Shown here: positions 42,748 through 50,574 of the stretch, in pieces
Numbering within the stretch: position 1 is the first letter of the stretch
How the letters are laid out: each line of letters opens with the position of its first letter
Origin: Dictyostelium discoideum
Taxonomy: Eukaryota
Direction: 5' to 3'
DNA: 64,000 bases
Assembly: GCA_000004695.1 (NCBI GenBank)
Contig: CM000151.3
Location: forward strand, 4,736,001 to 4,800,000
Notes under the pieces: model-generated
Database searches by the model: none
Told to the model about the DNA's origin: nothing
Seen by the model: only the letters and a program-made list of their open reading frames with translations
Made by a program: the position numbers and the translations under genes

Positions 42748-46720
<3,973 letters not shown>

Positions 46721-47186: not shown

Positions 47187-48489
47187 TTAATTTTTAATTT
47201 TTTTTCTTTCTGAACTACATTCACTACAATTGAATGATTTAAAAGGTGGTACACAATGAATATAAACACCAATTGTTAAACAAGCCATAATTGGACCAAC
47301 CATATATGGCCAAATATTTTCAAATTTTGATAAAACAATCGCTGGTGATAAACATCTTGCAATATTAAAACCAAAGATATAATTGGGTGCAATACCACCA
47401 GATGCTATAATTGAAAGACATAACATTCCTGAAATGAAAAATGAACCTGTAATTGGTCCTAAAAAAGGTGTTTGACGTGGATCAAGTGCCGTTCCAAAAG
47501 AAACATACAAATTAAATAGTGAAAGCATATATTCTAACCCTAATGCTCCACTTGGTGTTATAGATTGTCCAAATGAGCACATACCTAAATTTCCTCTACT
47601 CATAACATCATTTGGTAAAATTCCTTTAATTATAGCTGACCCAATAACTCCACCAACAATTTGTGCAATCATATAAATTATACATCTTATAACTTTTTTA
47701 TTATAAAATATTAGTAATTATTTAAATAAATAAAATAAAATAAAATAAAAAATACATACAAGAAGTATAACCAGCGAAAAATGTTGCTAATGTAATTGAT
47801 GGATTTAAATGACCACCACTAACAGGTGCACATGCTAAAATTAATAAAAATAATAATGGTATATGTAAAAGACCACTTAATATTGGTACTTTATAATTTG
47901 GTACACTATTTGATAATTGTTGTAATGTGAAATCATCTAAATTTGAAATATATGAAAAATTGAAATAATTTATAGAGGATGTAAATATTGCTATAGACAT
48001 AAACATGAAAAGTGCTGTACCAACCATTTCAGTAATTGCTGCCCTATATAATCCAATATTATATAGTTCATTTATACCTGAAATAAAATTTAATTTCTCT
48101 ATACACTTTTCTTTAAATGATTTTAATTTAATTTGAGGTGATGATGATGGTGATGGAGATGGTATTTTTCCAATATTTTCTTCCTCTTGACCTTCTTTTA
48201 TTATTACAATTTCTTTTTCATCCTCTTCTTCTTTTAGTTTTGTTTCAAAATCTGATAATTCTATACCTTGATCATTTTCGGTATCAATATCTTCATGATT
48301 ATGATCAAGTGATTTTTCAAGTGAAATTGATTGTTGTTTTTGTAGTTGTCTATTATATTGTATTAAACTTCCTTGGTAAAATGGTATTTCAACATATCTT
48401 ATTGTTTTTTTGGGTATTCTCCTTCTAAATCTTAAATTATGAGTTCTTTTATTATTATTATTATTATTATTTACTTTATCGTCATCCAT
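47187..48489 (-). CDS. Aquaporin / major intrinsic protein family member with a ~170-aa N-terminal extension and non-canonical NPS / NIA motifs, 411 aa. Two exons: 48489..47760 and 47692..47187.
   Basis: The true ATG is at 48489; the ORF-track start at 48498 is GTG. Exon 1 ends ...SGGHLNPSITLATFFAGYTS+t at GTATGT at 47759. The acceptor aaaaAG at 47694-47693 gives ...YTSFIRCIIYMIAQIVGGVIGSAII. This aligns residue-for-residue with the aquaporin [38 protein letters not shown]. The second motif is ...GFNIARCLSPAIV (NPAR replaced by NIAR). The intron is 67 bp. Confidence 0.8.
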
Positions 48490-48887: not shown

Positions 48888-50574
48888 TTATTCTACATCA
48901 GTTAATCTAAAAACATAAACATATGGTGGATAATCTTGTGGTGCAACCATTGGAATGTTTAGTGTAATACCAGGTTTTGTTGATTCAATTGGTAATGATA
49001 CTTCAACACCTTTTTCACCTTTTAAACCTAATAAAGTTGCTTCTGTTTTATTATTACCAATTGGATCACTTAAAATTAAAACACCATCATCTGGTAATTC
49101 AAATACAAATGCATAAACATTACCATTGGTAGTATTTGTAGTATACCAGATGTTAAAAGTCATATTTTGAACTCTCCATGGTGAACTACCATAAATTGAT
49201 TCAGAATTAATTGATAACCAATTACCAATCTCTAATAAACGGTCAACCATATTATTTGGAATTGTACCTTGAGCATCTGGGCCTACATCCAATAAGAAAT
49301 TACCACCACATGCAACCGTTGTTACCAAATCAATTATTAACTCTGTAGCATTTTGATAATCAGTAGCCTGTTCATATTCATCATAACCATATGAATATCC
49401 AATGGTTGCACAATTTTCCCATTTATGTGATTGAAGTTTATATGGATTAAAATGGTCAGCACCAGTATAAAATCCACCATTCTTATCTCTACATTCACTT
49501 CCCCATCTATCATTTACAATTACTGTATCTTTAACACTACTATTTGTATATAACCAACTTAAAAATTCTGTTGATTTCCAATAATTACTTAATTGCATCC
49601 AATCACCATCTGCCCAAATTAATTCAGGTTCTAAAAAATTAAAAATTAAAAAAAAAAAAAAAAAAAAAATTATATTAATAAATATTTTTTAATTAATTAA
49701 TTAATTATATAATAAAAAACCACATACCATATGTTGTAACAATATCTTTTAATTGTTTCATTAAAATTTCATCAACATAAACTTGAGTTGTTGGGTTTTT
49801 ACCAGTTTCAGCATCTGCAAGATATAATGGATTAAACCATTCTATTTTTTTTTTTTTTTTTAAAAAAAAAAACAATATTAGTATTAAAATTAATAAATAA
49901 TAAATTTAATAAAATATTTACCAAATAAAGAATGATAAAGACCCATATGTAAACCCATGTTTTTAACAGATTTTGTTAACTCACCAACGATATCAATACC
50001 AGGACCAGTTTCAACAGAATTCCAATTCCATGATTGTTCACTATTCCAAAGGGTATAACCTTCATGATGTTTTGATGTTAAAACTACATATTTTGCACCA
50101 GATTTTTCAATTATTGATGCCCATTCATTAGCATCGAATAAACGACAATCAAATCTTGAAACGAAATCTTGATATGTAAAATTGGCTCCAAACTCTTTTT
50201 CATGATATCTTTGTGTTGCACCACCATCAGAACTTGGATTTTTTAATGTCCACCAATACCATTCTGCATATCCTCCATTTGCAAATGCTGGTACACTATA
50301 AATTCCAAAATGAATAAATATTCCAAACTTTACATCATCATACTATAATATATTATTATTATTATAAATTTTTTAAAAAAAAAAAAAAAAAATATTAATA
50401 AAAAGTAAAAAATAATAATTATAAAAATAATAATAATAATAATAATAAAAATATAATAATATTTACCCAACCTGGTAATGGTCTTGAATTAATTTGGTCC
50501 CATGTTGGTCCATACTGTTGAGATTTAATTAAATTTAATATTAACAATATAAAAAAAATGATTATCATCTTCAT
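48888..50574 (-). CDS. alfA: Alpha-L-fucosidase (glycoside hydrolase family 29), secreted, 461 aa. Four exons: 50574..50467, 50342..49922, 49841..49728 and 49630..48888.
   Basis: Exon 1 (MKMIIIFFILLILNLIKSQQYGPTWDQINSRPLPGW) ends at GTAAAT at 50466. Exon 2 (YDDVKFGIFIHFGIYSVPAF...EWYWW...KYVVLTSKHHEGYTLWNSEQSWNWNSVETGPGIDIVGEL...LYHSLF+g) ends at GTAAAT at 49921. Exon 3 (EWFNPLYLADAETGKNP...IVTTY+g) ends at GTATGT at 49727. Exon 4 (EPELIWADGDW...FLSWLYTNSSVKDTVIVNDRWG...CGGNFLLDVGPDAQG...). The protein is colinear with human FUCA1 throughout (YDPTWESLD, KFGIFIHWG, LTSKHHEGFTLW, YYSLFEWFHP, GGNLLMNIGP). The introns are 124, 80 and 97 bp. Confidence 0.85.

Follow-up and report, generated by a model that had tools for sequence, protein, structure and literature searches.

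The X intrinsic proteins (XIPs) form the least understood subfamily of the aquaporins, with an origin that recent phylogenies put back to the last eukaryotic common ancestor. They are defined by two cysteines, in the motifs LGGC and NPARC, and a disulfide between loop C and loop E has been proposed (PMC2386804). Three reports describe the plant XIP1s as plasma membrane proteins that pass boric acid, glycerol, urea and hydrogen peroxide (H2O2) and are impermeable to water (PMC4909777, PMC12300952, PMC5345251). In NbXIP1;1 the N-terminal domain undergoes phosphorylation, and the authors of that study suspect this domain of gating the channel (PMC4909777). The XIP survey of Danielson & Johanson (2008) included a sole non-plant sequence, XM_639170, a "hypothetical protein" of Dictyostelium discoideum AX4 (PMC2386804), and published phylogenies put the Dictyostelium sequence among the XIPs (PMC2386804, PMC2789079, PMC11316224). 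The deviant pore boxes of this protein, DdXIP1;1, were noted in that survey and by Gupta & Sankararamakrishnan (2009) (PMC2386804, PMC2789079). Lorente-Martínez et al. (2024) placed slime-mould sequences in the XIP clade (MDC3), which they traced to the last eukaryotic common ancestor (PMC11316224), and a 2025 review repeats both the placement and the origin.

Here we analyse DDB_G0274209, an aquaporin-family gene in a stretch of 64,000 nucleotides (nt) of D. discoideum (contig CM000151.3 of assembly GCA_000004695.1, positions 4,736,001 to 4,800,000 of the forward strand). This whole stretch is called the window, and coordinates refer to it. The locus is not new: the gene is already annotated, and in 2008 it was both classed as a XIP and noted for its deviant boxes. 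What we add is context, namely a variant of the second pore box that extends across the dictyostelids, constraint on the channel core and a motif in the N-terminal extension. We consider it quite probable that DDB_G0274209 is DdXIP1;1, a conserved XIP-type channel for small uncharged solutes with a regulatory N-terminal arm. An initial annotation of the window, made from the sequence alone, had proposed instead an unorthodox or super-aquaporin.

Gene model, predicted fold and XIP membership

The gene lies on the minus strand, and its parts are as follows (aa, amino acids).

48489-47760 + 47692-47187, minus strand: whole gene, 2 exons, with ATG at 48489 and TAA at 47189-47187
47760..48489, minus strand: exon 1, codons 1-243 and the first base of codon 244
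47693..47759, minus strand: single phase-1 intron, 67 nt, GTATGT...AAG
47187..47692, minus strand: exon 2, remainder of codon 244 to codon 411, and TAA
47280..48060 (spans the intron), minus strand: MIP channel domain PF00230, aa 144-381, by Pfam

Exon 1 encodes the N-terminal extension, the first transmembrane helix (TM1), a long loop A, TM2 and the loop-B half-helix with the first pore box, NPS. Exon 2 encodes TM3 to TM6 and the loop-E half-helix with the second box, NIA. The locus has the typical AT-rich Dictyostelium look, with 25-34% GC in the exons against 10-15% in the flanks. Four donor/acceptor combinations were tried; two were in frame (model A, 411 aa, and model B, 410 aa), and the two others were rejected as out of frame. 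Model A, with the 67-nt intron, retains the conserved TSFIRCIIY with Arg246. Its product is letter for letter XP_644262.1 / EAL69997.1 / UniProt Q8SSP2 ("hypothetical protein DDB_G0274209", D. discoideum AX4), and the splice reconstruction of the initial annotation, which yields this curated RefSeq protein, can be kept. Model B was rejected because it loses the invariant Arg246 and differs from RefSeq. Canonical NPA motifs cannot be recovered by another choice of acceptor, a possibility raised with the initial annotation. Both boxes sit inside exons, NPS with its end 37 nt upstream of the donor and NIA with its start 326 nt downstream of the acceptor; no alternative acceptor can therefore restore NPA, and the only other in-frame splice, model B, leaves both boxes altered exactly as in A. 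A tblastn search with the 411-aa protein found no second MIP gene in the whole 64-kb window.

The assignment to the aquaporin family, already made from the sequence, was supported by Pfam, in which MIP PF00230 matches aa 144-381 with 107.4 bits (gathering cut-off 25, E=1.2e-30), and by a phmmer search against PDB sequences, which returned 51 aquaporin matches. The best solved aquaporin of any class scored 74 bits in this search and AtTIP2;1 37.6 bits. Identity to AQP1, AQP2 and AQP5 is 25-28% over ~260 columns (phmmer E values from 1e-19 to 1e-15), loop C and the stretch from TM5 to loop E contain indels, and the residue-by-residue alignment with orthodox aquaporins that had been described is too strong a statement. 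We built an AlphaFold2 model with a 28-sequence alignment. Its confidence (predicted local distance difference test, pLDDT) is mostly >90 for residues 121-390 and drops to 66-85 in loop A (~171-200). It contains six transmembrane helices (145-178, 200-224, 244-268, 290-311, 325-344 and 371-390) and two half-helices (230-239 and 354-364) that directly follow Asn229 and Asn353. Foldseek matched the model to AQP2, AQP1, AQP5, AQP0, AtTIP2;1 and SoPIP2;1 at target-normalised TM-scores of 0.73-0.86 (0.85 for AtTIP2;1, 5i32). The solved structures matched by the protein (phmmer) and by the model (Foldseek) include no XIP. The product is predicted from this model to fold as a canonical six-helix, two-half-helix aquaporin.

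Membership among the XIPs is indicated by a pair of cysteines.

47577..47579, minus strand: Cys282 in loop C, LGMC (the XIP LGGC hallmark), invariant in our alignments A1 and A2
47352..47354, minus strand: Cys357 after the loop-E Arg, NIARC (the XIP NPARC hallmark), invariant in A1 and A2

Of the 147 homologues with coverage of the two sites, 107 contain the complete pair, 34 contain no cysteine at either site and 6 contain just one. By analogy with the XIPs, Cys357 is the proposed disulfide partner of Cys282. Relatives were gathered by a word-indexed search and an exhaustive HMMER search, and the closest ones carry both cysteines. A profile of these closest relatives recovers an Aquilegia protein that UniProt names "X intrinsic protein" (P0190) at 322 bits. 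The pairwise BLASTP match to this protein has 110 bits and 28% identity over 312 aa; in it LGGC lines up with LGMC, and NPARCLGPAIV with NIARCLSPAIV. Six streptophyte sequences of the Cys-pair group that were looked up score 93-140 bits with this phmmer query, compared with at most 74 bits for the solved aquaporins. We inferred a tree by neighbour joining only (73 sequences, 228 columns, 100 bootstraps). It separates the Cys-pair sequences, including the Aquilegia XIP, from all other MIPs in 96 of 100 replicates, the other MIPs being unnamed orthodox-type eukaryotic hits and AqpZ-like bacterial sequences, with no named PIP, TIP or NIP references; the dictyostelid clade was recovered in 93. The Cys-pair group comprises angiosperm, moss, fern, streptophyte-alga, fungal, red-alga and dictyostelid sequences. 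Two further XIP features are present: PVSGGHLNP (aa 222-230) fits the motif P-x-SGGH-x-NP, with Pro seven residues ahead of box 1 (PMC2386804), and the box-1 Ala, which XIPs replace by V/L/I/S/C/T, is Ser, giving NPS as in PpXIP1;2 (PMC2386804 Table 3). The NPA form of box 2, typical of XIPs and not defining, is absent, and NIA stands in its place. Our searches found only one XIP-like gene in D. discoideum, and these sequence features mark DDB_G0274209 as the single XIP-type MIP member found there. P0045 and P0052, XIP-like and with Dictyostelium-like motifs, were rejected as D. discoideum paralogues, both being metagenomic.

The comparison with described XIPs shows what is shared and what is not. 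The plant proteins (NbXIP1;1, NtXIP1;1 and Aquilegia P0190) have the same Cys pair, P-x-SGGH-x-N motif and replaced box-1 Ala, fall in the same clade, and have a cytoplasmic N-terminal domain suspected, on the plant side, of being regulatory (PMC4909777). In contrast, their box 2 is NPA and not NIA, the N-terminus is ~100 aa longer in Dictyostelium, and the filter of dicot XIPs is aliphatic (V/I-V/T-A/V-R) whereas the Dictyostelium one reads H-(S/I/G)-F-R. Fungal XIPs (Trichoderma TaXIP, A. niger AQPF; P0005-P0008) share the Cys pair, an identical HLNPSITLA and a long N-terminus, which in their case carries FAGRIGGN. However, the box-2 consensus of ~950 fungal XIPs contains Pro in all groups save the Dothideomycetes, where it is N(PS)A (PMC12300952), and most of these proteins have Asn at the H2 filter position where Dictyostelium has His. 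The XIPs of Zoopagomycotina, with boxes NPS/NPA and the filter H-I-S-R, come close to the filter found here (PMC12300952).

These results bear on the super-aquaporin reading, in which the protein would be an intracellular channel of the endoplasmic reticulum type and of the AQP11/12 or SIP kind. AQP11, AQP12 and the plant SIPs resemble it in their deviant first box, which is the only deviant one in these proteins: their second box is NPA, and a Cys follows nine residues after it. DDB_G0274209 recalls this group in that both its boxes deviate and NPS resembles the group's NPC/NPT/NPL; moreover, slime moulds have another MIP clade, MDC1, near AQP11/12 and the SIPs (PMC11316224). However, box 2 is NIA and does not fit a deviant first box followed by a canonical second one, residue 364, nine residues after box 2, is Leu in NIARCLSPAIVL, and identity to orthodox aquaporins (25-28%) exceeds the <~20% used for super-aquaporins. 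The XIP Cys pair is present, the protein groups with the XIPs at the bootstrap given above, and published trees place it in MDC3, not MDC1. The characterised plant XIPs, moreover, are solute channels of the plasma membrane (PMC4909777, PMC12300952). We consequently regard the super-aquaporin reading as very improbable, and the initial annotation did not stand in this respect. Doubly deviant boxes need not mean a super-aquaporin, because PfAQP of Plasmodium falciparum, of the GlpF lineage, has them as well. The PfAQP boxes read NLA and NPS; this MIP is functional although an aliphatic residue stands in for one box proline. It has been cited as a MIP structure with both NPA motifs substituted (PMC2789079). 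PfAQP differs from the XIP described here as a GlpF-lineage aquaglyceroporin without the Cys pair, with the P-to-L change in box 1 and not in box 2.

Pore boxes, selectivity filter and constraint

The residues that line the presumed pore are encoded at the following positions.

47797..47805, minus strand: box 1, N229-P230-S231, in PVSGGHLNPS (translation; HLNPSIT = 47811-47791)
47358..47366, minus strand: box 2, N353-I354-A355, followed by R356-C357 (translation; GFNIARC = 47372-47352)
47863..47865, minus strand: His209, H2 filter position, 20 residues before Asn229 (register counted from N229)
47397..47408, minus strand: end of TM5, I339-G342, containing the H5 position (residue ambiguous: I339, S341 or G342)
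47355..47375, minus strand: F350 (LE1), three residues before N353, and R356 (LE2), the residue after box 2

Both NPA boxes are altered (HLNPS and GFNIAR), as had been claimed, and the translation and its identity with the RefSeq protein bear this out. The box-1 Asn column has Asn in 148 of 157 homologues, alignment A2 shows no exception at either box Asn, and 111 of 148 aligned sequences retain the filter Arg. Box 2 of published XIPs already includes NPS, N(P/S)A and (F/Y)P(N/A/T), and other protist members of the Cys-pair clade have NWA, NFA or NVA. Many of these protist sequences (P0003, P0040, P0048, P0049, P0056, P0060 and others, including a Porphyridium 'TIP4-3') also replace the filter Arg, with A-V/I/M/Q/E-C in place of A-R-C, which suggests a further XIP-like subgroup with a very different pore.

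We then compared the boxes with those of eight sequences from six other dictyostelid species.

D. discoideum: box 1 NPS, box 2 NIA
D. purpureum XP_003294465: box 1 NSS, box 2 NIT
Tieghemostelium lacteum KYQ90629: box 1 NST, box 2 NIS
Acytostelium subglobosum XP_012750944: box 1 NPV, box 2 NIA
Polysphondylium violaceum gene 1: box 1 NPT, box 2 NIA
Polysphondylium violaceum gene 2: box 1 NPV, box 2 NIA
Cavenderia fasciculata XP_004350034: box 1 NPT, box 2 NMA
Heterostelium album XP_020433986: box 1 NPT, box 2 NMS

The two P. violaceum orthologues are KAF2077367 and KAF2069874. Dictyostelid orthologues have the Cys pair in common, and box 2 takes the form N-[I/M]-[A/S/T]-R-C in D. discoideum and in seven of the eight other sequences, the exception being a second Heterostelium model (P0039) with a degenerate box 2 (SINRC). 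They differ in box 1 (NPS, NSS, NST, NPV or NPT) and in the ~90 to 270 aa that precede TM1. Neither box has a proline in D. purpureum and T. lacteum. As Ile or Met takes the place of the box-2 Pro in seven of eight orthologues outside D. discoideum, the sequences argue that this replacement is a stable, clade-wide dictyostelid variant and not decay. P0039 itself (Heterostelium album XP_020433864, 710 aa) has NCT as box 1 and is annotated as a fusion to an endonuclease/exonuclease/phosphatase domain; either two genes merged in the model or the decay of a paralogue may explain it.

To measure constraint at a shorter distance, we rebuilt the coding sequences of orthologous loci from three other D. 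discoideum-type assemblies and from D. purpureum. The open reading frame is intact in all of them and the phase-1 intron is at the same position. The intron itself is polymorphic in length, with 67, 94, 94 and 122 nt in the D. discoideum-type strains, whose exons are nearly identical, and 58 nt in D. purpureum. For the core, the ratio of non-synonymous to synonymous rates (dN/dS, Nei-Gojobori) is 0.05-0.09 when AX4 is compared with the other strains and ~0.2 against D. purpureum. AX4 and the most divergent strain differ in the core by 15.5 synonymous and 4.5 non-synonymous differences. The N-terminal extension is looser, with dN/dS of 0.11-0.60 among the four strains (one pair undefined, dS=0). 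Purifying selection, intact frames and a shared intron position together indicate that the channel core is under strong purifying selection and that the gene is neither a pseudogene nor a model artefact. An artefact or pseudogene, its odd motifs produced by a wrong splice or by decay, would have nothing in its favour beyond the AT-rich context and the absence of transcript-derived matches. The motifs lie inside exons of a model identical to RefSeq, intron position and phase are kept in D. purpureum, the frame is intact in four strains at the core dN/dS given above, and the variant box 2 recurs in seven of eight orthologous sequences from six other species. This alternative has practically no chance of being right, and sequence comparison identifies DDB_G0274209 as a real, intact and selectively constrained aquaporin-family gene.

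Two side observations concern these orthologous loci. The assembly labelled 'Dictyostelium cf. discoideum' differs from AX4 by a dS of ~0.09. The D. purpureum gene DICPUDRAFT_9720 (XP_003294465, 275 aa, 'partial'; GL871501.1 reversed, L001:3275-4892) is under-annotated: its open reading frame runs upstream in frame to an ATG at L001:3275, adding ~240 aa that include a long poly-Asn tract and FQGGIIKY.

The filter departs from that of the orthodox AQP1 type (filter F-H-C/T-R, boxes NPA/NPA) in having H209, a non-His H5, F350 and R356 with NPS/NIA. His209 agrees with the published DdXIP filter, H-(S/I)-F-R (PMC2386804 Table 3; PMC2789079 Table 6). The H5 residue is S341 by ungapped count, G342 by MAFFT and I339 in the published homology model of the Dictyostelium XIP (PMC2789079); in no case is it His. 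TIP-type filters are alike in their His at H2, a non-His and possibly Ile residue at H5 and Arg at LE2, as in the H-I-A-R of PpTIPs (PMC2386804 Table 3). They differ in the small LE1 (Ala in PpTIPs, Phe here), and TIPs are without the Cys pair. AtTIP2;1 is an ammonia-permeable aquaporin of the TIP type. On these residues, an altered selectivity of the DDB_G0274209 channel is plausible.

These residues also bear on whether the protein could be an ordinary water channel, for example of the contractile vacuole, with box changes that are functionally silent. In its support, the best structural matches are the water-selective AQP2, AQP1 and AQP5, the box Asn residues and the Arg are kept, and reverting the deviant NPA boxes of PfAQP reportedly changed little. 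However, there is no His at H5, while the His at H2 recalls the PpTIP filter (PMC2386804 Table 3), and plant XIP1s are impermeable to water until their filter is mutated (PMC5345251). We give this alternative only a small chance and return below to the solute channel.

The N-terminal extension and its motif

The sequence ahead of the channel domain contains the two features below.

48052..48489, minus strand: N-terminal extension, aa 1-146, predicted cytoplasmic (composition, AlphaFold2)
48355..48381, minus strand: motif FYQGSLIQY, aa 37-45 (consensus F-x-G-[GS]-[LIV]-[IVL]-x-Y)

A long and acidic extension of ~170 residues had been announced. The extension is present, but TM1 starts near residue 147, so that its length is 146 aa, and it is only mildly acidic overall (27 D/E vs 23 K/R). 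Residues 1-40 form a basic head (pI 10.6), and residues 41-146 an acidic low-complexity spacer (pI 4.6). In the AlphaFold2 model, pLDDT is <50 for residues 1-34 and 67-119 and reaches 55-70 for residues 35-62; most of the extension is predicted to be disordered.

When the dictyostelid N-termini are aligned, one conserved island stands out of otherwise unalignable sequence, downstream of the basic cluster. It reads FQGGIIKY in D. purpureum, FQGGLIRY in T. lacteum, FLGGVVQY in P. violaceum, SPGGLLRY in A. subglobosum, FPGSLIKY in C. fasciculata and FPGGLVRY in H. album, and, of the eight dictyostelid sequences whose N-terminus is present, seven show a recognisable F/S-x-G-[GS]-[LIV]-[IVL]-x-Y. 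The motif is absent from one P. violaceum protein (P0036 / KAF2077367), and one Heterostelium model (P0038 / XP_020433986) is without an N-terminus. Among 79 XIP-like proteins whose N-termini were adequate, a regular expression, which misses the A. subglobosum form, found the motif in 39, and it occurs nowhere else within those proteins; from residue frequencies, ~0.2 chance occurrences of the strict motif are estimated in the whole set. It usually lies 40-55 residues ahead of the TM1 glutamate. In D. discoideum it lies 115 residues upstream because the acidic low-complexity spacer is inserted. Beyond the amoebae, the motif appears as FKGSLVQY in Chlorokybus, FEGALVKY in Mesostigma and YEGSLVHY in a fern, and the FAGRIGGN of fungal XIPs is a variant of it. 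The angiosperm XIP N-termini that we looked at miss the motif and have VQPF(S/P)S(T/A)PR-like sequence instead (e.g. VQPFSSTPR). Carriers of the motif include P0043, P0044, P0051, P0053, P0057, P0061 and P0087. The XIP literature examined holds no description of this motif.

We suggest, tentatively and with more doubt than confidence, that the motif is a gate or plug, or a docking site for a regulator, and that together with the box-2 change it makes the protein a regulated solute channel with a mechanism unlike that of characterised aquaporins. As a gate or plug, its invariant Tyr could be comparable to the N-terminal Tyr31 of yeast Aqy1.

Proposed function and neighbouring genes

By analogy with characterised XIPs, the most likely role of the protein is a gated channel for small uncharged solutes. 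Where the two half-helices meet, the aliphatic side chain of Ile354 would take over the packing of the missing proline. The filter would consist of His at H2, a small or aliphatic non-His residue at H5, Phe at LE1 and Arg at LE2. Candidate solutes are H2O2, urea or ammonia, glycerol and molecules like boric acid, and constitutive water permeability would be low; these expectations come from the filter residues and the behaviour of characterised XIPs. The most likely location is the plasma membrane. The N-terminus would be a disordered regulatory arm, made of the ancient XIP motif preceded by a basic cluster and of a lineage-specific acidic spacer, that probably controls gating or trafficking. 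D. discoideum is genetically tractable and has the one XIP-like gene that we found, so that it could reveal what an ancestral XIP does. Whether a XIP can do without the box-2 proline, and whether its pore is gated by the N-terminal motif, could be learned there as well.

Other MIPs of D. discoideum (AqpB, AqpA and WacA) belong to the same superfamily but to different MIP clades. AqpB is gated and closed as wild type, and its gating involves an intracellular loop (deletion of residues 208-219, or Tyr216; PMC13332306). This protein is relevant to another alternative, that of a conserved MIP with a permanently occluded pore, which conducts nothing and serves in adhesion, scaffolding or sensing. 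In its favour, the filter residues H, I/S, F and R are bulky (PMC2789079), box 2 has no proline (nor has box 1 in D. purpureum and T. lacteum), wild-type AqpB is impermeable to water in oocytes (PMC13332306), and purifying selection shows function, not transport. However, alignment A2 shows no variation in the box Asn residues or the Cys pair, and the filter Arg is retained at the frequency given above, a pattern expected if the pore itself is selected. Characterised XIPs conduct solutes (PMC4909777). PfAQP, with doubly deviant boxes, is reported to be a bifunctional water/glycerol channel. An occluded pore therefore seems rather unlikely to us, if less so than the water channel or the super-aquaporin, and we retain the gated solute channel.

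Several points weigh against the solute channel and the context in which we place it. In the published homology model all four filter residues are bulky and the pore is possibly closed or very narrow (PMC2789079), and the ambiguity of H5 (I339, S341 or G342) leaves one filter position uncertain. Danielson & Johanson themselves doubted a function like that of plant XIPs, as boxes and filter are unlike those of all other XIPs (PMC2386804). The exact protein matched two genomic contigs and zero transcript assemblies, with no transcript-derived contig. The equation of XM_639170 (DdXIP1;1) with XP_644262 is inferred from residues and not read from the record: Table 3 gives box 1 as NPS and the filter as H / S (alternative I) / F / R (PMC2386804), and the published residues match His209, Ser341 or Ile339, Phe350, Arg356 and box 1 here. 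The same table prints NPA for loop E of XM_639170, whereas genome and RefSeq read NIA; the entry also conflicts with that paper's own text on boxes unlike all other XIPs and looks like a typographical slip. Full-text search found no paper that names DDB_G0274209, Q8SSP2 or XP_644262, and only two XIP survey papers that cite XM_639170 or DdXIP. The supplements of PMC5923282, checked for expression evidence, do not contain DDB_G0274209.

The neighbouring genes lie on the same strand. Upstream, 48888-49598 (minus strand) holds the C-terminal exon of an alpha-L-fucosidase; the counterparts of this neighbour at the orthologous loci L003 and L004 have the Pfam domains Alpha_L_fucos and Fucosidase_C, and synteny is kept among D. 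discoideum-type strains. Downstream, 42748-46720 (minus strand) is a large multi-exon gene with the Cys-box and His-box motifs of ubiquitin C-terminal hydrolases and very long poly-Asn, poly-Thr and poly-Asp tracts.

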